Below the pieces are notes generated by a model. The model worked only from the letters and a program-made list of their open reading frames with translations. It was not told where the DNA came from and did not search any database. A DNA stretch of 64,000 nt. Origin: Myxococcota bacterium. Lineage in GTDB: Bacteria; Myxococcota_A; UBA796; CAJQPC01. The position numbers and the translations under genes are program-made. Positions 17,222 to 30,273 of this stretch are shown here, in pieces. The stretch lies in NCBI GenBank assembly GCA_036229005.1, contig JAZAMN010000008.1, forward strand, positions 32,001 through 96,000, given 5' to 3'. Within the stretch, counting starts at the first letter, position 1. Each line of letters starts with the position of its first letter.

Positions 17222-17839
17222 TCAGGGTTCAGGCCCCCGGAGCAGGCCCTCCAGCACGGCCTCGCCCATGCCCGGCGCGATGCTCGCCCAGTCCCGCTCG
17301 GGGCAGAGGGCGATCATGCGCAGCAGGCCCCCCAGCCAGGCGGTCAGGGCCAGGCTCGCACCCTCGACGTCCAGGTCGGCGGGGAGTTGGCCCCGCGCCA
17401 CGGCCAGGCGCATCAGCTCCTTCTCGTGGAAGTGCACCTTGTCGGCGTTGTCCCGGAGGCGGTCCAGGATGTCGGAGCCCTCGGTGGCCTCGACCCGCAG
17501 AAAGAGCACGCTGAGCAGCTTCTGCCGCTGGGGGTCGGTGGTGTTGGCGTGGGTGATCCGCGCCACCCAGGCCCGCAGGGTGCCCAGAGGGTCTTCGGCG
17601 CCCTCCTCGCGCATCTGCTCCAGCACCTCGGCCGGGAAGAGGTAGCGATCACAGAGGGCGTTGAACAGATCCGCCTTGTTGCGGAAGTGGCCGTAGATCG
17701 CACCCCGCGTCATGCCGGCCCGCTCAGCCACCTTGGTGAGACTGGGGCGGGCCACGCCCTCCTCCGCGAACACCTCCAGGGCGGCGTCCAGGAGGCTTTC
17801 GCGGGTCTGAAGAGCTTGTTCGGGGGTGCAACGTGCCAT
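17222..17839 (-). CDS. TetR/AcrR-family transcriptional regulator
   Basis: LLDAALEVFAEEG..SLTKVAERAGMTRGAIYGHFRNKADLF HTH; divergent from RND operon. Confidence 0.95.
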   Translation of the reverse strand: MARCTPEQALQTRESLLDAALEVFAEEGVARPSLTKVAERAGMTRGAIYGHFRNKADLFNALCDRYLFPAEVLEQMREEGAEDPLGTLRAWVARITHANTTDPQRQKLLSVLFLRVEATEGSDILDRLRDNADKVHFHEKELMRLAVARGQLPADLDVEGASLALTAWLGGLLRMIALCPERDWASIAPGMGEAVLEGLLRGPEP

Positions 17840-17865
17840 GGGCGGACGCCTACTCTATCAGATAC

Positions 17866-17883
17866 ATTCATACATGCATGAAT
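17866..17883. promoter_or_regulatory. putative TetR operator palindrome
   Basis: ATTCATACATGCATGAAT near-perfect palindrome in the AT-rich gap between tetR and the efflux operon. Confidence 0.7.
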
Positions 17884-17903
17884 AAAAGAGGCCTCCTCCA
17901 AGG

Positions 17904-19022
17904 CTGCTGACGCTCCTCGCCCTTGGCTGCGCCCCCGATCCCGCCCCCGCCGAGCGCCCCCCACCCCAGGTGGGTGTGCTCCACGCCCAGACCGAATCCC
18001 TGCCCGTCCAGCTCGAGCTGCCCGGCCGCGTCGAGGCCGTCCGCACCGCCCAGGTGCGCGCGCGCGTGACCGGCGTGGTGCTGGAGCGCAGCTTTGAAGA
18101 GGGCGAGTGGGTGGAGCAGGGCCAGGTGCTCTACCGCATCGACCCCGCCCCCATGCAGGCCGCGCTGGCACAGGCCAAGGCCCAGGTCTCCGTGGCCCAG
18201 GCCAACCTGCAGCTCGCCCAGAGCACCGCCCAGCGCCTGGAGCCCCTGGCGGGCACCAAGGCCGTGAGCGCCCAGACCCTGGATGACGCCCGGGCCGCCG
18301 AGGCCCAGGCCCGCGCCAGCCTGGAGCTCGCCAAGGCCCAGGCCCAGTCGGCGGCGCTGGATCTGCAGTACGCCACCGTGCGCGCGCCCATCTCCGGGCG
18401 CATCGGGCGGGGCCTGGTCACTGAGGGTGCCCTCGTCAGCGCCGGGGAGCTCACCCCCATGGCGAGCATCGTGCAGCTCGATCCGGTGTACGTGAACCTG
18501 TCGGTGCCCGTGGCGGAGCTGCGGGCACTGCGCGCCCAGTCCGGCACCTCCCTGGAGCAGGAGCAGGGCGCTCAGGTCACCCTCTCCGACGGCGACTGGC
18601 AGTACGCCCACACCGGCAGCCTGCTGTTCACCGACGTGAGCGTGGACCCCCAGACCGGCAGCACGCTGATCCGCGCCAGCTTCCCCAACCCCGACGCGGA
18701 GCTGCTCCCGGGCATGTTCGTGCGCGGCTCGGTCCAGGGGCAGCGCAAGGAGCTCGCGGTCTCCCTGCCCGAGGAGGTCATCCAGCGCTCCGGCGGCGAG
18801 TCCAGCGTGATCGTGGTGCAGGACGGCGTCGCCAAGCAGCGCAGCGTCCAGGTGCGCCGCACGGTCGGCACCCAGGTGGTGGTCCAGGGCCTGGAGTCCG
18901 GGGACGCCGTGGTGACCGACGGCTTCCAGAAGCTCACGGTGGGGCAGCCCGTCACCGCCGTCGAGGTCCAGGCCCAGGCCGAAGCCCCCCAGACGCCCAC
19001 CGTGGCGCAGGCGGAGGAGTAG
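17904..19022 (+). CDS. RND efflux periplasmic adaptor (AcrA/MexA-like); start uncertain
   Basis: ELPGRVEAVRTAQVRARVTG, VRAPISGRIG, FPNPDAELLPGMFV; in-frame LLTLLALGC lipobox from 17904 but no in-frame ATG. Confidence 0.9.
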   Translation: MLTLLALGCAPDPAPAERPPPQVGVLHAQTESLPVQLELPGRVEAVRTAQVRARVTGVVLERSFEEGEWVEQGQVLYRIDPAPMQAALAQAKAQVSVAQANLQLAQSTAQRLEPLAGTKAVSAQTLDDARAAEAQARASLELAKAQAQSAALDLQYATVRAPISGRIGRGLVTEGALVSAGELTPMASIVQLDPVYVNLSVPVAELRALRAQSGTSLEQEQGAQVTLSDGDWQYAHTGSLLFTDVSVDPQTGSTLIRASFPNPDAELLPGMFVRGSVQGQRKELAVSLPEEVIQRSGGESSVIVVQDGVAKQRSVQVRRTVGTQVVVQGLESGDAVVTDGFQKLTVGQPVTAVEVQAQAEAPQTPTVAQAEE

Positions 19023-22000
19023 ATGTCCCAGTTCTTCGCCAAGCGGCCCGTCTTCGCGTGGGTCGTGGCCATCTTCCTGGCCCTGGGTGGCCTGCTGGCG
19101 CTCTTTGAGCTGCCCGTCGCCCAGTACCCCACCGTGGCCCCGCCCACGGTCAACGTCTCCGCGACCTGGCCCGGCGCCTCCGCGGAGCTCATCGACGAGT
19201 CGGTGACCTCGGTGATCGAGCAGGAGCTCAACAGCGCCGAGAACATGCTCTACATGGAGAGCCAGAGCCAGGCGGGGCAGGCGCAGATCAGCGTCTCCTT
19301 CCAGCCCGGCACCGACCCCCAGCTCGCCACCGTCGACGTGCAGAACCTGATCAAGCGGGTCGAGGCCAAGCTGCCCGCCGCCGTGCAGTCCCAGGGCGTG
19401 CAGGTCACCCGCTCCAGCTCCTCCTTCCTGCTCATCGCCTCGCTGGTCTCCGCCGACGGCAGCATGAGCTCGGTCGAGCTGGGCGACTACATCAACCGCA
19501 GCGTGGCCAACGAGCTGCGCCGGGTCAACGGCGTCGGCGAGGTGCTGGTCTTCGGCACCGAGCACGCCATGCGCGTGTGGCTGGAGCCCGAGCGCCTGGT
19601 GGCCCACGACCTGACCGCCGCCGAGGTCAGCGCCGCCATCGCCGCCCAGAACCTCACCGTCTCCGCCGGCACCGTGGGCGCCCGCCCCCTGACCCCCGAG
19701 CAGCAGCTCTACGCGGACATCAACGTCCAGGGCCAGCTCGGCAGCGTCGAGGAGTTCAAGGACATCGTCGTGCGCGCCAACAGCGACGGCTCCCTGGTGC
19801 GCCTGGGGGATGTCGCCCGGGTCGAGCTGGGCGGCCAGAGCTACGCGACCACCGCCCGCACCAACGGCCAGCCCTCCGCCGCGATGGGCGTGCGCCTGTC
19901 GCCCACCGCCAACGCCCTCGCCACCGCCACCGCCGTCAAGGATCGCCTGGACGAGCTCTCCTACGGCTTCCCGGACGGCGTGGAGATCGTGCTGCCCTTC
20001 GACTCCTCGACCTTCATCGAGATCTCCATCGAGTCGGTGCTGCACACCCTGCTCGAGGCGATGGTCCTGGTGTTCCTGGTGATGTTCATCTTCCTCCAGA
20101 ACCTCCGGGCCACCCTCATCCCCACCATCGTGGTCCCCGTGGCCCTGCTGGGCTCGCTGCTGGTGCTCTACGCGCTGGGCTACTCCATCAACGTGCTCAC
20201 CATGTTCGGCATGGTGCTCGCCATCGGCATCCTGGTCGACGACGCCATCGTGGTCGTCGAGAACGTCGAGCGCATCATGGCCGAGGAGCACCTCTCCCCC
20301 CTGGCCGCCACCCAGAAGGCCATGGGTCAGATCCAGGGCGCCATCGTCGGCATCACCCTGGTGCTCGTGGTCGTGTTCCTGCCCATGGGCCTCTTCGGCG
20401 GCGCGGTGGGCGTGATCTACCGCCAGTTCTCCGTGACCATGGCCAGCTCCATCCTCTTCTCGGCGCTGCTGGCCCTCACCCTCACCCCGGCCCTGTGCGC
20501 CACCCTCCTCAAGCCCCACGACCCCGACGCGGAGAAGAAGGGCCTGTTCGCCTGGTTCGACCGCGTCGTGGAGCGCAGCACCGAGGGCTACGTGTCCTGG
20601 ACCGCCCGCTTCGTCCGGCGCCTGGGCCCGTCGATGGCCGTCTACCTGGGGCTCACCCTCCTGGCCGGCCTGGGCTACTCCCTGCTGCCTGGCGGGTTCC
20701 TGCCGGATGAGGATCAGGGCAGCGTGCAGACCCTGGTCCAACTCCCCTCCGGCGCGACCGGCAACCGCACCCAGGAGGTCGTGGGCGCCATCGAGGACAC
20801 GCTGGCCCAGCAGGACGGCGTCCGCGACTACCTGACCGTCCAGGGCTTCTCCCACATGGGCCGCGGCCAGAACGCCGCCATGGCCTTCACCCAGCTCGAA
20901 GACTGGGACGAGCGCGAGCTCTCCGCCCAGCAGATCGTCGGCTCCCTGAACGCGCAGCTCTCGCAGCTCCGCGACGCCCAGGCCTTCGCGGTCAACCCCC
21001 CGGCCATCCGGGGCATGGGCAACAGCAACGGCTTCGCGTTCCGCCTGGAGGACCGCAGCGGCCTGGGCCACGAGGCCCTGATCGACGCCCGCAACCAGCT
21101 CCTGGGCATGGCCGCCGAGTCCCCCGTGCTCGCCGGGGTGCGCCCCGAGGGCCTGGAGGACGCCGCCCGCCTGGAGCTGGACATCGACCGCGAGAAGGTC
21201 GTGGCGATGGGGGTCGACTACTCCGACATCTCCCGCGCCCTGAGCATCTCCGTCGGCTCCTCGTACATCGGCGACTTCCCCCGCGCGGGCCGGCAGCAGC
21301 AGGTGATCCTGCAGGCCGACGCCCCCGCCCGCATGCACGCCGAGGACCTCTCGGAGATCTACGTGCGCAACGACGCCGGCGCCCTGGTGTCCCTGGCCGA
21401 GCTGAGCACCCTGAGCTGGGGCAGCGGCCCCATCCAGCTCACCCGCTACAACGGCTACTCGGCGGTCAAGCTCACCGGGCAGCCCGCCGAGGGATACTCC
21501 ACCGGCGAGGCCATGGCCGAGATGGAGCGCCTGGCCGACCAGCTCCCCACCGGGTTCGGCTACGAGTGGACCGGGCAGTCCCTGCAGGAGGCCACCTCCT
21601 CCAACCAGGCGCCCATGCTCTTCGCCCTCTCGCTGCTGGTGGTCTTCCTGTGCCTGGCGGCCCTCTACGAGAGCTGGTCCATCCCCACCGCGGTGCTCCT
21701 GGTCGTCCCCCTGGGCGTGCTGGGCACCGTGATGGCCACCGGCCTGCGCGGCCTGAGCGATGACGTGTACTTCAAGGTGGGCCTGATCGCCGTGATCGGC
21801 CTGTCCGCCAAGAACGCCATCCTGATCGTGGAGTTCGCCAAGGACCTGCAGGAGCAGGGCATGGGACTCATCCAGTCCGCGATCGAGGCCGCCCGCCTGC
21901 GCTTCCGCCCCATCGTGATGACCTCCCTGGCCTTCTCGCTGGGGGTGGTGCCCCTGGTGATCTCCAGCGGCGCCGGCTCCGCCAGCCAGCGGGCCATCGG

Positions 22001-22148
22001 CACCGCGGTGTTCGGCGGCATGGTCGTGGGCAGCGTGCTCGCGGTCTTCCTGGTCCCCGTCTTCTACGTGGTGGTGCGCCGCATCGCGCCCCTGCAGGAG
22101 CCCACCCCCACCGCCTCCCCCGAGCTCACGGAGGGCGCCCATGCTTAG
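19023..22148 (+). CDS. RND efflux permease (AcrB/MexB-like)
   Basis: FFAKRPVFAWVVAI, GILVDDAIVVVENVER, GLSAKNAILIVEFA, RFRPIVMTSLAF. Confidence 0.97.
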   Translation: MSQFFAKRPVFAWVVAIFLALGGLLALFELPVAQYPTVAPPTVNVSATWPGASAELIDESVTSVIEQELNSAENMLYMESQSQAGQAQISVSFQPGTDPQLATVDVQNLIKRVEAKLPAAVQSQGVQVTRSSSSFLLIASLVSADGSMSSVELGDYINRSVANELRRVNGVGEVLVFGTEHAMRVWLEPERLVAHDLTAAEVSAAIAAQNLTVSAGTVGARPLTPEQQLYADINVQGQLGSVEEFKDIVVRANSDGSLVRLGDVARVELGGQSYATTARTNGQPSAAMGVRLSPTANALATATAVKDRLDELSYGFPDGVEIVLPFDSSTFIEISIESVLHTLLEAMVLVFLVMFIFLQNLRATLIPTIVVPVALLGSLLVLYALGYSINVLTMFGMVLAIGILVDDAIVVVENVERIMAEEHLSPLAATQKAMGQIQGAIVGITLVLVVVFLPMGLFGGAVGVIYRQFSVTMASSILFSALLALTLTPALCATLLKPHDPDAEKKGLFAWFDRVVERSTEGYVSWTARFVRRLGPSMAVYLGLTLLAGLGYSLLPGGFLPDEDQGSVQTLVQLPSGATGNRTQEVVGAIEDTLAQQDGVRDYLTVQGFSHMGRGQNAAMAFTQLEDWDERELSAQQIVGSLNAQLSQLRDAQAFAVNPPAIRGMGNSNGFAFRLEDRSGLGHEALIDARNQLLGMAAESPVLAGVRPEGLEDAARLELDIDREKVVAMGVDYSDISRALSISVGSSYIGDFPRAGRQQQVILQADAPARMHAEDLSEIYVRNDAGALVSLAELSTLSWGSGPIQLTRYNGYSAVKLTGQPAEGYSTGEAMAEMERLADQLPTGFGYEWTGQSLQEATSSNQAPMLFALSLLVVFLCLAALYESWSIPTAVLLVVPLGVLGTVMATGLRGLSDDVYFKVGLIAVIGLSAKNAILIVEFAKDLQEQGMGLIQSAIEAARLRFRPIVMTSLAFSLGVVPLVISSGAGSASQRAIGTAVFGGMVVGSVLAVFLVPVFYVVVRRIAPLQEPTPTASPELTEGAHA

Positions 22149-23547
22149 CGCGCTGTTGGGCCTGGCCTGCCTGGCCCCCAAGTACACCCCCCCCGCCGCC
22201 CCGGTGCCCACCGACTTCCCCCAGCAGGTGCAGGCCCAGAACGCCCAGGACCTGCCCCCCTGGCAAGAGGCCTTCACCGACCCCGAGCTGCAGGGCCTGA
22301 TCCAGACCGCCCTGGACAACAACCGCAGCCTGCGGACCACCCTGCTCAGCGTCGAGCAGGCCCGGGTGCAGCTCCGCCTGTCCTCCTCCGCGCTGGCGCC
22401 TCAGTTGGGGCTGGAGGCCGGCTTCACCTCGGTGGGGACGCCGGCCTCGGTGTCTGCTTTTGGAGAGGGCTACCAGGTGAACCAGTACCGCGCGGGGCCC
22501 ACCGTCTCGTGGCAGATGGACCTGTTCGGCCAGCAGCGCTACGCGCGGCGGGCCTCGGCTGTGGAGCTCTCGGCCGCCGGCGAGGACTGGCGTGCTGCGC
22601 GCATCTCGCTGATCGCCCAGGTGGCCAGCGCCGCCTTGCAGGAGCGGGTGCTGCTGCAGGAGCAGGCGCTGGCGGCGCAGGCTCTGGCTGACCGCCAGGA
22701 GTACGCCGAGCTGGTGCGCGTGAAGGTGGAGGCGGGCCTGGCCTCGGAGCTGGACCTGCACCAGGCCAACGCGCTGGTCTCCAGCGCCCAGGTCACCCAC
22801 GCCCAGCTCGAGCGCGGCGCCGCCCAGGCCCACAACGCGCTGGTGCTGCTGGTGGGCGCCCCCGTGGCCCCGCTGGAGGCCCTGGACCGGCCGGCCCAGG
22901 AGCTGGTACGCACCACCCTGGACCCCGGCCTGCCCTCGGAGCTGCTGCTCTCCCGGCCCGATCTGCGGGCCGCCGAGCAGCGCCTGATCGCGGCCCACGC
23001 CAACATCGGCGCGGCCCGGGCGGCCTTCTTCCCCAGCATCTCGCTGACCGGCGGGGTGAACTCCGCCTCGGCGTCGCTGGGGGGGCTCTTCCAGCAGGAC
23101 ACCCTGGCCTGGAGCTTCACGGGGCCCACGGTCTCTCTGCCCATCTTCGATCTGGGCGCCCGCCGGGCCAACCTGCGGGGCTCCAAGGTGGCCCGCGAGC
23201 AGGCGCTGGCCTCCTACGAGGCGACCATCCAGACCGCCTTCCGGGAGGTCGCGGACGTGCTGGTGGCCTGGCCCACCTACGAGGCCCAGGTGGCCGCGCA
23301 GCAGGAGCTGGCCCAGACCCAGAGCCTGCGGGTGGACCTGGCCGAGCAGCGCTACGAGGGCGGCGTCTCCGACTACCTGGAGGTGCTGGACGCCGAGCGC
23401 GAGCGCCTCACCGCCGAGCTCGCCCTGCGGGAGGCCGATCTGGCCCAGGCCCAGCTCGCCGTGAGCTGGTTCTTGGTGTTGGGTGGCGGCGCGGAGTCCG
23501 AGGTCGGGATCCCGGAGTGGGAGTCGGTGCGCAGCGAGCAGCCCTGA
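22141..23547 (+). CDS. RND efflux outer-membrane factor (OprM/NodT-like)
   Basis: Lipobox LGLAC, PGLPSELLLSRPDLRAAEQRLIAAHANIGAARAAFFPSISLTG, YLEVLDAER. Confidence 0.95.
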   Translation: MLSALLGLACLAPKYTPPAAPVPTDFPQQVQAQNAQDLPPWQEAFTDPELQGLIQTALDNNRSLRTTLLSVEQARVQLRLSSSALAPQLGLEAGFTSVGTPASVSAFGEGYQVNQYRAGPTVSWQMDLFGQQRYARRASAVELSAAGEDWRAARISLIAQVASAALQERVLLQEQALAAQALADRQEYAELVRVKVEAGLASELDLHQANALVSSAQVTHAQLERGAAQAHNALVLLVGAPVAPLEALDRPAQELVRTTLDPGLPSELLLSRPDLRAAEQRLIAAHANIGAARAAFFPSISLTGGVNSASASLGGLFQQDTLAWSFTGPTVSLPIFDLGARRANLRGSKVAREQALASYEATIQTAFREVADVLVAWPTYEAQVAAQQELAQTQSLRVDLAEQRYEGGVSDYLEVLDAERERLTAELALREADLAQAQLAVSWFLVLGGGAESEVGIPEWESVRSEQP

Positions 23548-23553
23548 AGGAGG

Positions 23554-23587
23554 GAACCCGGCGAGCGTTGTCCATCTCGCCGGGTTC
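23554..23587. terminator. 12-bp hairpin between convergent transcription units
   Basis: GAACCCGGCGAG-N10-CTCGCCGGGTTC; no U-tract, so terminator function is unproven. Confidence 0.55.
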
Positions 23588-23595
23588 GGGGGGCG

Positions 23596-23955
23596 CCATT
23601 TGTCCTGCAACAGCGGTGGAGCTCGATTGATTGAACGTCGATGTGTTCTCTACACCATCGGGGCACAGGTGGAGCCCCAAGCCGGGTACGAGCCGGCGGC
23701 TTCGACGAGTGTCTCGCTCCGGGGATTTGCAGGCAGCGCGGTTTGGATTCAGCTTCCAGCACGCAGTCTCTGTTTGATGCCCCTGTGTGACCCCGGGCTG
23801 TGATGGGCCCTGCGTCTACCAATTCCGTCACCCCCGCGTAGATGGTGCGGGGGGGAGGACTCGAACCTCCACGGGTCGGGGCTGAGCTTGTCGTTGTGGT
23901 TGAGCTTCCTCGCTGGGGGGGGTGGCCCTCATCGGGGCCAAAGACAAAGGGGAGT
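23596..23955 (-). ncRNA. putative structured ncRNA with two circularly permuted tRNA-like domains
   Basis: Domain 1 (23805-23882): GGAGG-TTCGAGT-CCTCC, CCCCCGC-A-CCA, TCTAC, GCGGGGG-TG-ACGGAATTGGTAGACGC. Domain 2 (23636-23707): GCCGG-CTCGTAC-CCGGC, TTGGGGC-T-CCA, CCTGT, GCCCCGA-TG-GTGT-AGAGA-ACAC. Flanked by long-range helices. Confidence 0.75.
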
Positions 23956-24699
23956 TCAGGGGATGAGGTAGCGCATCAGCCGGTCACCCAGAGCGGACTG
24001 CTCCACCTCCAGGTCGTTGGCCTGCTCCACGGCGAACTGGATGGCCCGCCGCACCCGCTCGATGCGCTCGAGCAGCTCACGCTTCTCGGGGGCCGGCAGC
24101 GCGGCGCTGGTGTCGGTCTGGACCCAGTGGCCCACGACCTTGTTCACGTCGACCAGCTCGGACTGGGCCGGGTGCTCGACGGTGGCCTGGACCAGGACGA
24201 TGGGCTCCTTCACCCGCTCGGTCTTGGCCCGCTTGATCACCTCCGCGCGGTACTGGCCGCTGGCGGCATCCAAGGTCCAGACCTTGGAGTTGTCCAGCAC
24301 GGGGAGCTGGCCCACCAGCTCCGCGAGGTCCTTGAGGCGCTTCTCCAGGGTGAGCAGCAGGGGGACGGGCACGTCCTCCAGCAGGGTCTGGCCGTCGACC
24401 ACCACGTCGGCCTTGGCCTGCATGTTGCCCACATCGCAGGTGGCCACCACGTTGATCCAGTCGGACATCAGGGTGCGGACGTCGCGGAGCAGCTCCGCGG
24501 CGTCGGCCTGGATGACCTTCTTCTCGTCGGGGTACAGCCCCTCGTTCTCGGTGGTCAGGGCCTCGAACTTCTTGTGCATCCCCACAAAGTCACCGGGCTT
24601 CTTGGCCTGGTGGTAGTGCTTGGAGAGCTGGGAGGTGGCGCGCTGCGCGGCGCCCTTGCGGATGCCCACCCACTGGTTGAGCTTGGTCTTGGTCGTCAT
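23956..24699 (-). CDS. conserved hypothetical protein (from memory resembles the DUF7873-type family; unverified)
   Basis: MTTKTKLNQW..AKADVVVDGQTLLEDVPVPLLLTLEKRL..LPVLD..ATVEHPAQ..VGHW..ALP..AVEQAN; strong GC3 bias. Confidence 0.85.
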   Translation of the reverse strand: MTTKTKLNQWVGIRKGAAQRATSQLSKHYHQAKKPGDFVGMHKKFEALTTENEGLYPDEKKVIQADAAELLRDVRTLMSDWINVVATCDVGNMQAKADVVVDGQTLLEDVPVPLLLTLEKRLKDLAELVGQLPVLDNSKVWTLDAASGQYRAEVIKRAKTERVKEPIVLVQATVEHPAQSELVDVNKVVGHWVQTDTSAALPAPEKRELLERIERVRRAIQFAVEQANDLEVEQSALGDRLMRYLIP

Positions 24700-24787
24700 T
24701 TCTCTTGCCTGTGTTCTGGGCAGGAGTAGTCCCCGGCTTCGGGGGGACCAGATGCGACACGGATCCGTCACAAATGGAGCTTGAAGC

Positions 24788-28533: not shown

Positions 28534-30273
28534 TCAGATCTGGTTCAGCCCCTCCTTGAGGTCGGCGGTGGCCGCGGCGAAGGGGCCGCTCGAGGCAGCG
28601 CAGCTCTCGGCCCTCTGGACCAGCGAGAGACCACTCTGGCGGACCCTGTCCTGCTTCTTGAGCTGGGTCTTGGCCTGCTGCTTGGCGTCCTGTTCCTGCT
28701 TGGTGTCTTCCGGTTCGGGGGTCTTTGAGATCTCGCCCCAATTGTCTCGGGTGTTGTCCCAGAGGTTGTGGGCGGTGACCACCTTGTCGCCGTCCAGGCG
28801 GGGGTTTCGGTAGCCGGTCGCCTTGCCGGCGACCTCGGACCAGATCCCCTCTTGGCCTTGGGCGGTGCTGCTCTCGTAGTTTGTCTGCGCGTCCAGGAAG
28901 CTCCCGTCGCCGCGAGCGCCGACCAGCAGCCCAACGCCACCCAGAGCTGCGCTCTTGAGGTGCTCTCCGGACTGGGACTGAGCAGCCAGCTTGTGCTTGA
29001 GCCGGGTCTTGTTCCGGGAGCTGATGTACTTGGTCCAGATCCCCAGCCCCAGCGACAGCGCGGCCTGGATCACCTTGATGATCACCAGCGCCCCGGTCGC
29101 CGAGAGGGCCACCGGGATCGCGCCCACCAGAGTGGCCCAGATCGCGAAGGTCCCGATGGCTCTGGAGAACACACCGAGTACATCCTGGAAGGTCAGCAGG
29201 TGGTGGTAGAGACCGTTGAGCGGCTCTCCGAGCTCTGTGGCCTTCACCCCAGCCTTCTTCTGGGCATCGGCGAGCTCAGCGATGAAGCCCTTGAAGCCCT
29301 GCTGGGTGGTGATCTTCCGCCCGCCGTCCCCAGGGGTGAGGGTCTCGGTCGGCTTCCCATCTGAGGTGCTCCCGGAGCTGGCCTTCATGCCATGGTTCTG
29401 GTCCTTCACCAGCCTGGCAACCGACTCCCAGGTCACAGCGCCCCCGGTCAGCATCTCCACGGCGCCCGCGACCAGCTTGGAGCCAACCCACTGCGCCAGG
29501 CGTCCGAGCCAGCTGCTCATGTAGGCTGGCTTCCACTGGAAGCCCACCTCATCCTCAAAGAACTCCCGGGTCCCCTCGGCGCGCGCCATCATCCGATTGG
29601 CCTGCACGCGGCGGTCCTGTAGCTGCTTGACGGTGGCCAGCTCCGAGGAGATGTCCGCGCCCCTGGCCGACTTGTCGCCGATGCTGTCGTAGGCGTCGCT
29701 GGCCTGGTCTGTCCAGGTCTCCGTGAGCTGTTGCCAGAGGAGCAGGTCTTCGATGCGCGCCTCCGCCGAGCGGCTGTCGACTGCCAGCAGGTCGGCGTTC
29801 CAGCGCGGGTCCCCCTCCACCTTCTTGGGGTCATCCTTCAGCTGTTTCTTGCGGGCATCCAAGAGCTGGAGACCCTCGCCGGCGAGCCGGTGATACTCCC
29901 GGAGCTCACTGTTCCTCTTGGACAGGTGCTTGTAGGTCTGCTTTGCCCGCTTCCGAGCCCGCTTCGCCACCTTCTTGCCCCTGGCGCCGTCCAGGTCCTT
30001 GCGGATGTCCCCGGCCTTCTCCGTCTTGGTCCGCAGCCCAAACCAGGTCTTGTGGGTCAGCTTCTCGGCCTCCGCGTCCTGCCCGGCCAGTCCGAAGATC
30101 TTCCGCGTATACCGGTTGGCGTTGAAGCGGCGCAGCGCCGCGTCCCCGTCCAGGGGGTCCTTGAGCGGGTCCTGCATGCTGGCGGGGCCCTGTTCCTGGG
30201 CCGACTCAGCGTGCTCCTGCTCCCCGCCGCCCCTCTCGGACTCCGCGTCCGCCGCCAGCATCTCCTGATCCAT
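28534..30273 (-). CDS. hypothetical protein with hydrophobic hairpin (possible membrane-active effector)
   Basis: 579-aa ORF with GGAGG RBS, weaker GC3 bias than neighbours, long hydrophobic stretch VFSRAIGTFAIWATLVGAIPVALSATGALVIIKVIQAALSLGLGIW. Confidence 0.7.
   Translation of the reverse strand: MDQEMLAADAESERGGGEQEHAESAQEQGPASMQDPLKDPLDGDAALRRFNANRYTRKIFGLAGQDAEAEKLTHKTWFGLRTKTEKAGDIRKDLDGARGKKVAKRARKRAKQTYKHLSKRNSELREYHRLAGEGLQLLDARKKQLKDDPKKVEGDPRWNADLLAVDSRSAEARIEDLLLWQQLTETWTDQASDAYDSIGDKSARGADISSELATVKQLQDRRVQANRMMARAEGTREFFEDEVGFQWKPAYMSSWLGRLAQWVGSKLVAGAVEMLTGGAVTWESVARLVKDQNHGMKASSGSTSDGKPTETLTPGDGGRKITTQQGFKGFIAELADAQKKAGVKATELGEPLNGLYHHLLTFQDVLGVFSRAIGTFAIWATLVGAIPVALSATGALVIIKVIQAALSLGLGIWTKYISSRNKTRLKHKLAAQSQSGEHLKSAALGGVGLLVGARGDGSFLDAQTNYESSTAQGQEGIWSEVAGKATGYRNPRLDGDKVVTAHNLWDNTRDNWGEISKTPEPEDTKQEQDAKQQAKTQLKKQDRVRQSGLSLVQRAESCAASSGPFAAATADLKEGLNQI

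Follow-up and report, generated by a model that had tools for sequence, protein, structure and literature searches.

DUF7873 genes are accompanied by a conserved RNA that carries two tRNA-like modules in circularly permuted order. The copy with which we began lies in a 64-kb stretch of a Myxococcota genome (the window), and comparison with other loci confirmed that the two-module RNA downstream of DUF7873 is real and conserved. Gene and RNA likely form a ribonucleoprotein, the binding being predicted. The topology of each head is already known from the YrlA Y RNAs; the two-headed architecture, the repeat tracts and the partner protein are new. To our knowledge, few bacterial tRNA mimics have a dedicated protein partner (tmRNA-SmpB and Y RNA-Ro60), and the DUF7873-RNA pair, a large family found in several phyla and in phages, adds to them. 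It offers a first way into the function of DUF7873, and bears on the purpose of tRNA-like Y RNA heads and on why phages carry tRNA-like RNAs.

An earlier note on the window had described two permuted tRNA modules after the 247-aa gene, on the same strand, and every element that it named lies on the minus strand where the note placed it (Table 1). In both modules the T-arm is followed by a 7-nt acceptor 3' strand, the discriminator, CCA, a 5-nt linker, the acceptor 5' strand, U8-G9 and the D-arm, and each acceptor stem pairs at 7/7 positions. The linker of exactly 5 nt is true of both window modules but is not a feature of the family, in which linkers measure 3-89 nt and up to 606 nt. The proposed length of about 360 nt gave way to a core of about 310 nt (23916-23604). 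A closing helix drawn between 23948-23943 and 23604-23599 overlaps the 23610-23604 strand by one base, and only 5 bp of it can coexist with that strand. The strong hairpin at 23554-23587 is present, has no U-tract and was not called as a terminator; such 3' hairpins come after many homologues.

The window copy is not a typical one. Module 1 has an A10-C25 mismatch, and its halves match the 3' and 5' ends of host tRNA-Leu genes with the order swapped (blastn E 3e-4 to 0.004). Module 2 has a T-loop without U54/A58 and a D-loop without G18G19, and scores 44 bits with the covariance model R1 (below) versus 65-127 for typical copies. When the whole 6.4-Mb genome was scanned for permuted modules, 11 candidates lay above threshold, the two modules of the window RNA ranking second and fifth; ranks 1, 3 and 4 were tandem tRNA-Pro or tRNA-Ser genes listed by ARAGORN. 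ARAGORN made no call on the window RNA, and the host genome has an ordinary tmRNA at another site. The folding energy (z -1.77) is weak evidence alone; conservation and covariation carry the case.

Table 1. The DUF7873 gene and the elements of its RNA, in window positions.
Feature	Position	Strand	Basis or remark
DUF7873 gene, 247 aa, PF25283	23956-24699	minus	Pfam E 2.8e-72
5' hairpin ahead of core	23923-23940	minus	sequence and fold; variable among homologues
Core of two-headed tRNA-mimic ncRNA, about 310 nt	23604-23916	minus	alignment of 53 copies, compensatory change at 43/46 pairs; approximate ends
Helix P1, 5' strand; links piece A to piece B	23911-23916	minus	partner 23756-23761; partner-swap test
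Tract A, four period-6 repeats (two degenerate here); predicted, likely protein-binding sites	23882-23907	minus	U-N-A spacing versus shuffles
Anticodon-like stem of module 1, 3' strand	23873-23883	minus	partner 23779-23793; sequence and MFE fold
Permuted tRNA module 1, whole	23812-23870	minus	sequence, genome scan, conservation
Module 1 T-arm	23854-23870	minus	
Module 1 acceptor 3' strand	23847-23853	minus	
Module 1 discriminator A	23846	minus	
Module 1 CCA	23843-23845	minus	
Module 1 linker	23838-23842	minus	
Module 1 acceptor 5' strand	23831-23837	minus	
Module 1 D-arm	23812-23828	minus	
Extra hairpin between D-arm 1 and anticodon-like stem	23795-23810	minus	in a subset of copies
Tract B, U-N-A repeats either side of P1 3' strand (23756-23761)	23749-23777	minus	column conservation, 53-copy alignment
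B-C arm, 5' strands	23702-23733	minus	compensatory change in 7/7 and 8/8 pairs of two helices; fold
B-C arm pairings	23727-23733/23604-23610; 23716-23720/23618-23622; 23702-23706/23637-23641		last pairing is anticodon-like stem 2
Permuted tRNA module 2, degenerate in window copy	23643-23697	minus	sequence, conservation, 44.4 bits, E 7e-9
Module 2 T-arm	23681-23697	minus	
Module 2 acceptor 3' strand	23674-23680	minus	
Module 2 discriminator U	23673	minus	
Module 2 CCA	23670-23672	minus	
Module 2 linker	23665-23669	minus	
Module 2 acceptor 5' strand	23658-23664	minus	
Module 2 D-arm	23643-23655	minus	
Strong hairpin on the 3' side, which probably terminates transcription or protects the 3' end	23554-23587	minus	fold; without U-tract

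Conservation was measured in a main sample made up of the best 80 of 563 bacterial and the best 80 of 282 viral loci, eight phage records, the locus L001 and the window; the best-80 samples are biased to one DUF7873 subgroup and rich in Streptomyces. A pattern scan covered the 700 nt downstream of the gene, for which 168 loci were long enough and two too short. It found 0, 1, 2 and 3 modules in 6, 22, 138 and 2 loci, that is, at least one in 162 and at least two in 140, while the same scan gave 9/163 upstream, 1/168 in shuffled sequence and 1/168 on the reverse strand. The covariation downstream of homologues that the earlier note had asked for is also there: in an alignment of 53 copies, picked for short linkers, both sides change in 43/46 pairs, and 94.6% of the cells are paired versus 65.9% after shuffling and 42-50% with slid partners. 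The long non-tRNA helices of the RNA covary in this alignment as well. Helix P1 (CCAGCG/TGCTGG), already drawn in the note, held up in a partner swap, with a 5-bp match to its own partner in 51/81 RNAs versus a mean of 10.7 (maximum 18) for swapped partners.

We built the covariance model R1 from module 2 and its arm. R1 matches 80/80 bacterial and 75/80 viral loci, of which 49 had gone into the model. Its five viral misses are two contig ends, L143 (184-nt linker) and two near-identical phages, L138 and L140, that have DUF7873 without the RNA; the intact DUF7873 gene of L176 has no RNA nearby either. In independent samples R1 matched 6/6 actinobacterial genes and, of 12 genes of the host's own phylum, nine with strong scores and two, a divergent paralogue, with weak ones; the twelfth gave no match. 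Across 151 whole genomes all five matches of at least 65 bits adjoin DUF7873; the 14 weaker matches that were checked comprise 13 tandem tRNA genes and, in L196, a single permuted module that stands without the gene. Tandem tRNA genes reach 53 bits with R1, and the 44 bits of the window copy falls in the same weak band.

A motif scan that started from the RNA returned at least 165 loci, at least 109 of them with a permuted module and at least 82 of these with 500 nt or more upstream; some of its viral contigs are shared with the 80-locus viral sample. Among the matches listed, 77/82 copies have DUF7873 alongside. Of the remaining five, four are copies of a single spurious, AT-rich match, and the fifth is L292, in which a deletion has fused the DUF7873 start to the RNA and the RNA survives the loss of the gene. 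In L033, L177, L179, L180 and L182 the RNA lies on the strand opposite to DUF7873 and still adjoins it; the RNA therefore works as a separate transcript rather than as a cis element. Several copies have lost module 1 or closed it off (for example L082, L141, L142, L144, L157 and L174); the repeats and P1 are retained where it is lost.

The RNA is a dumbbell, in which segment A is joined to segment B by P1 and anticodon-like stem 1, and segment B to segment C by anticodon-like stem 2 and two helices. As the earlier note had proposed, the rest of the RNA takes the place of the anticodon loops, with both stems running into long covarying helices. The unpaired tracts between the helices carry a period-6 motif, A-R-N-Y-U-N, with four repeats in A, three to four in B and two in C, and tract A has at least three U-N-A at 6-7-nt steps in 73/102 RNAs versus 4.3% of shuffles. 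No covariation among the tracts was found that would point to pairing between them. The repeats can be read as Lys/Arg-Leu/Phe codons, with a 7-nt step in 19/101 RNAs, suggesting that the constraint on them is most likely on RNA and not on codons. The period-6 U-N-A tracts do not appear in the earlier description of this RNA.

The middle segment measures 97-137 nt in 96/102 RNAs. The T-loop, the D-loop and the Levitt pair are retained in both heads across phyla; the Levitt pair (15:48) is A-U or G-C in 100/102 RNAs for each module and covaries, with A15:U48 in head 1 of 96/102. The discriminator is A73, as in tRNA-Leu, in 81/102 of the first heads, and U or G in the second. Acceptor pairs 2-7 vary freely, and this together with U/G73 in module 2 indicates that no single tRNA species is imitated.

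Signals of processing were counted in 102 non-redundant RNAs out of 137 two-module loci. The linker after the discriminator is 3-82 nt long in module 1 and 5-89 nt in module 2. The longest, of 606 nt (L118), contains a whole HNH-type gene, and acceptor pairing is still 7/7; linkers also accept tandem repeats, and the one in L120 contains a tRNA-like gene. CCA is encoded in 34/102 RNAs for module 1 and 51/102 for module 2, and C74 in 75/102 and 96/102. The leader bases U-1 and purine -2 favour RNase P; a purine at -2 is present in 84/102 (module 1) and 88/102 (module 2) versus 43% within linker interiors, and U at -1 in 44/102 and 67/102. Among canonical tRNA genes at these loci, 110/360 encode CCA and 156/360 have U-1. 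The YrlA RNA of M. smegmatis, which among the members tested is the one with a 7-bp acceptor, is cleaved by RNase P and gains CCA in vivo (PMC4201824). From the CCA and leader bases, the variable linkers and this precedent, three base-paired pieces with two CCA ends would be expected. We thus consider it probable that RNase P cuts before 23837 and 23664 and that each 3' end becomes CCA by trimming or by completion.

The protein had been described in the note as DUF7873-like, which proved correct. Its 243.8 bits with the Pfam profile, over positions 2-242 of 244, lie well above the gathering score of 27 bits. A GTG-started frame that begins further upstream, at 24771, was set aside, since the alignments with homologues start no earlier than about residue 4 of the ATG form. 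The AlphaFold model (pLDDT 93, pTM 0.84) predicts a helical bundle with two long beta-arms, at about residues 39-64 and 136-199. The arm strand 155-170 is basic, with a mean of 4.2 K/R versus 0.7 D/E in 149 homologues, among which K159 is K/R in 92% and R162 in 97%. In four short homologues (about 170 aa) both beta-arms are missing and no RNA lies nearby, which, in this small sample, points to the beta-arms as the RNA-binding part. A four-copy complex prediction scored 0.27 against a mark of 0.42.

Foldseek found no match for the model in the PDB at E<=0.001, and a sequence search of the PDB found no convincing one. In the VIA structure search the top hit (Z 8.3) was a designed helical bundle, inside the background range. 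TolC shows a loose likeness in helix/strand arrangement (Z 6.6), and a TolC-like fold was set aside because the rmsd is 13 A. Searches of PHROGs, NCBIfam and PADLOC with the protein gave nothing significant.

The family comprises 2,025 representatives of clusters at 50% identity and is present in 74 GenBank phage records. With its RNA it ranges over several phyla and over phages whose hosts are Gram-positive or Gram-negative, carriers including culturable Streptomyces and the phages Gordonia Phendrix, Arthrobacter Mimi and Ralstonia RSL1. Its spread is patchy: 3/61 relatives have the gene, as do 15/251 genomes of the own phylum (full-length in 11) and 7/301 of Actinomycetota. In the window the pair is flanked by a convergently transcribed TetR-RND efflux operon and, upstream, by a phosphatase-like gene; these do not recur at other loci, and across the loci compared we found no recurring third gene or defence neighbourhood. 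A promoter scan in the window found none.

Phage copies of DUF7873 sit in tRNA arrays, some near RtcB, TROVE or Pth2 genes. The earlier note had remarked on a YrlA-like topology with no Ro60 nearby and suggested a genome search for TROVE and rtcB; neither TROVE/Ro60 nor RtcB was found in the 94%-complete host genome. Within 5 kb, TROVE clusters occur at 4/170 loci and RtcB at 5/170, all viral (genes seen once being unannotated). Genome-wide, TROVE is present in 6/11 carriers versus 14/240 other genomes of the own phylum (Fisher p 4e-5, overstated by kinship and genome size), in 4/6 carriers versus 7/294 in Actinomycetota (the seven including the unpublished G386), and in 30/55 carriers picked by locus. 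DUF7873-RNA and Ro60 share a niche, an enrichment confounded by kinship and genome size, and partnership with Ro60 is not obligatory. One conserved internal loop looks like a Ro60 site and is kept in 16/29 copies with TROVE and 14/24 without; a reading of it as a Ro60 site was set aside, as it does not track TROVE.

The comparison with the Rfam models of YrlA, tmRNA and tRNA, also proposed in the note, leaves the novelty of the RNA standing. The window RNA matched no family and gave no YrlA match at E<=10, and nothing reached gathering score in 11 homologous loci. The best YrlA (RF02553) score, 31.2 bits against a gathering score of 69 bits, came from the Streptomyces locus L062, whose repeat aligns with the YrlA 5' motif. 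YrlA with Ro60/Rsr has the same permuted T-arm/acceptor/D-arm head with an anticodon stem that runs into a long rod (10.1101/312249), and likewise occurs in bacteria and phages. The DUF7873 RNA has two heads and YrlA one, and at about 310 nt it is longer than Y RNAs, described as 80 to about 220 nt (PMC4201824; 10.1101/312249). It differs also in its 7-bp acceptors, open linkers of any length, often encoded CCA and repeat tracts, and its partner gene is DUF7873 rather than a TROVE protein. A YrlA RNA is expected to have a Ro60/TROVE gene within about 4 kb on the same strand (PMC4201824), and the window RNA has no such neighbour. By the account of their search in PMC4201824, Chen et al. (2014) searched only TROVE-carrying genomes, and nearly all best matches lay within 4 kb of TROVE; their supplement includes four YrlA copies 81-389 nt from Ro60. 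The GNCGAAN0-1G motif of YrlA occurs in strict form in segments A/B of 15/102 of our RNAs and in the basal-stem window of 3/53; the conserved element at the basal stem is A-U-C-R-A.

In two-piece tmRNAs the T-arm and CCA come first, followed by a removable segment and the acceptor 5' strand, and the pieces are base-paired. The DUF7873 RNA resembles them in permuted order and base-paired pieces, but has a full D-arm, an anticodon-like stem and two modules, and has neither G3:U70 nor a tag frame. The alanine identity of tmRNA (RF00023) is absent, pair 3 being G-U in 2/102 and 4/102 RNAs with D stems present; neither ARAGORN nor Rfam called a tmRNA, and a tag frame would be broken in 19/101. Nor is it a permuted true tRNA gene, in which splicing of the termini would restore the anticodon loop; the anticodon-like stems run into covarying long helices and there is no anticodon loop. 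TRAP-type ribonucleoproteins have short triplets repeated in unpaired RNA and bound by a protein oligomer. The DUF7873 RNA likewise has conserved, unpaired triplets, at 6-7-nt steps, fit for an oligomer; unlike TRAP targets, it differs in triplet and spacing, its protein has no convincing match among solved folds, and it is free-standing rather than a leader.

A possible sister pair is formed by DUF6847 (DIP1984; PF20935; PDB 3KDQ) and its RNA. The likeness of predicted structure to DUF7873 is weak, with a TM score of 0.44-0.49 by query, under the Atlas naming bar, and sequence homology between the two was sought and not found (HHalign probability 0.6%). A conserved T-arm RNA lies downstream in 9/13 DUF6847 loci, sometimes alongside TROVE and YrlA. 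In contrast to DUF7873, DUF6847 has 150 aa and no long beta-arms, and the RNA beside it carries a single T-arm without a permuted acceptor. In the open-access literature we found no paper naming DUF7873 or DUF6847, and DIP1984 only in an unrelated mention; the DUF7873-RNA pair is undescribed in the titles and abstracts covered.

We propose the following mechanism. After the RNase P cuts and 3' maturation, three base-paired pieces would result, the middle one of 168 nt. Several DUF7873 subunits very probably bind the unpaired U-N-A repeats through the basic beta-arms and hold the pieces together. Seen from the elbow and the CCA end, the heads would resemble mature tRNA, though they would have no anticodons, and, protected in this way, could sequester toxins or nucleases directed at the tRNA elbow or the CCA end. 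Translation would thereby be shielded, both in cells and in the course of phage infection. We favour the decoy role because phage copies sit in tRNA arrays, RNA-repair genes are associated with the pair and acceptor identity is free; the sink function itself is tentative, and the whole chain, from ribonucleoprotein through pre-tRNA-like cutting to two CCA-ended decoys, is a working model that falls somewhat short of an even chance. Against it, no single tRNA is imitated, module 1 is lost in some copies, and module 2 of the window is without elbow bases. We give close to even chances, as one joint estimate, to a reading in which the heads are aminoacylatable and held at a fixed distance, a new-fold DUF7873 oligomer reads U-N-A along a three-piece RNA, and the setting is phage-host tRNA conflict, the pair being maybe one of several Ro60-independent protein/tRNA-mimic pairs, DUF6847 another. 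The interpretation in the earlier note as a whole is partly supported. The pair suggests a naturally multi-piece RNA scaffold that would be matured by RNase P.

Other explanations were weighed against the same evidence. The RNA may be a tether like a Y RNA: DUF7873 would sit on the repeats much as Ro60 sits on the Y RNA stem, and for the surveillance or repair of RNA the heads would recruit an effector that recognises tRNA (an exonuclease, the CCA enzyme, EF-Tu or the ribosome). The YrlA head topology, the 31-bit Streptomyces copy with its repeat on the YrlA 5' motif and the enrichment of Ro60 in carriers speak for it, but about half of the carriers, the host genome included, have no Ro60 match, the Ro60-site-like loop does not follow Ro60, and no linked effector gene occurs at the loci compared; we consider a tether unlikely. 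If the heads were only handles for processing or stability, the working part would be a ring, filament or cage of DUF7873 on the repeats. Such a scaffold would explain why the repeats and P1 outlast module 1 and why acceptor identity is unconstrained, and about ten repeats suggest an oligomer. That both heads have kept T-loop, D-loop and Levitt pair in different phyla, and that there are two of them at so narrow a spacing, goes beyond what stability needs, which leaves this explanation improbable.

More doubtful still is a guard or toxin-antitoxin arrangement, in which the RNA holds DUF7873 inactive until attack on the heads frees a toxic or channel-like protein. The near-obligate gene-RNA linkage, the patchy spread and the loose TolC likeness would suit it; the beta-arm is basic and not membrane-like, PADLOC gave no match, phage copies lie inside tRNA arrays, intact genes occur without RNA nearby (L138, L140, L176), and in L292 the RNA persists where the gene is deleted. 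We regard it as very improbable that the repeats are a tmRNA-like template, in which alternating Lys/Arg and Leu/Phe codons tag proteins or template a beta-strand peptide. The topology of two-piece tmRNA, wobble-like variation among the repeats and the Leu-like head 1 (A73, A15:U48) agree with a template. The 7-nt step breaks its frame, all Arg codons in the first tract A repeat are AGR (where the anchor demands an initial A), there is no in-register stop codon and no G3:U70, and a long helix at the anticodon position would presumably not fit the decoding site. Functionless remains of tandem tRNA genes, or a scar left by integration, might be suspected from the tRNA-Leu likeness of module 1 and from the bit scores that tandem tRNA genes reach with R1. 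This reading is effectively refuted by the covariation, which extends to the long non-tRNA helices, and by the RNA-first linkage of the copies to one gene.

With carriers among culturable Streptomyces and laboratory phages, every step of the proposed decoy mechanism is directly testable. Transcription was looked at for the Streptomyces locus L062. In a soil metatranscriptome, mainly the gene was covered at L062. The transcriptome of a related isolate contains one contig, about 92% identical and at a depth of 255 in an assembly of 2.6 Mb, that spans the DUF7873 gene, both linkers and the 3' hairpin. This supports transcription of gene and RNA in a relative, as seen in one isolate without a silent-region control. 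The contig crosses both linkers, and uncut RNA therefore exists, at least as a precursor.

The permuted tRNA module and the DUF7873 gene (PF25283) were each also found without the other. A lone module at locus L196 lies in a genome, G136, in which a genome search gave no match to DUF7873 and none to TROVE, the Ro60 protein that is the usual partner of YrlA. Conversely, four loci (L183-L186) encode DUF7873 relatives of about 170 aa that lack both of the long beta-arms and have no RNA, and these armless proteins would serve as natural controls for RNA binding. At L003, in genome G047, the DUF7873 gene is disrupted by a deletion and a stop, and no RNA was found downstream of it. Second, divergent copies of DUF7873 are present in genomes G188 and G193 (L187 and L188). 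Downstream of each of these paralogues lies a variant RNA that carries repeats and a single head, the acceptor of which is short and closed; an ordinary tRNA gene comes next.

Linker 1, between the CCA position and the acceptor 5' strand of module 1, carries a nested gene at two loci. At L118 the acceptor keeps full pairing despite the putative endonuclease gene lying between its two strands.

Features mapped at the collected loci and in the window
Feature	Position	Remarks
Lone permuted tRNA module	L196:1501-1632 (G136), minus strand	7-bp acceptor
HNH-type endonuclease gene	L118:5821-6426	inside linker 1; family named from motif
tRNA-like gene	L120:5840-5934	nested in linker 1; Rfam tRNA, 41 bits; no call by ARAGORN
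tmRNA gene, Gordonia phage Phendrix	L006:569-1097	Rfam, 89 bits
Gene 126, Gordonia phage Ziko	L005:3491-3700	annotated small hypothetical CDS
TetR gene and divergent MFP-RND-OEP efflux operon	window 17222-23547	operon converges on the RNA
ORF, 579 aa	window 28534-30273	no match in Pfam

The GenBank record of Phendrix annotates nothing in the stretch that holds this tmRNA gene. A tmRNA gene is present at L146 as well. Ziko gene 126 overlaps the DUF7873-linked RNA, and this CDS is probably a mis-annotation.

The DUF6847/DIP1984 gene (PF20935) and the RNA downstream of it may form another, so far uncatalogued, pair of protein and RNA. A T-arm hairpin lies within 350 nt downstream of 9 of the 13 DUF6847 genes (loci among L217-L220 and L223-L232), and motifs flanking it are common to the loci; in the upstream control, such a hairpin was found in 1 of 13, and that match was YrlA-like. 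An Rfam search downstream of the gene at the nine actinobacterial loci gave no match, and no paper was found under the name DUF6847 in the open-access literature. The family includes PDB 3KDQ. TROVE-YrlA operons are present at two of the DUF6847 loci.

Inspection by eye of loci among L039-L092 revealed, in many from Streptomyces and Nocardia, a TANNNT box about 6-7 nt upstream of the DUF7873 start codon. This box suggests that the transcripts would be leaderless and would arise from a housekeeping-type promoter.
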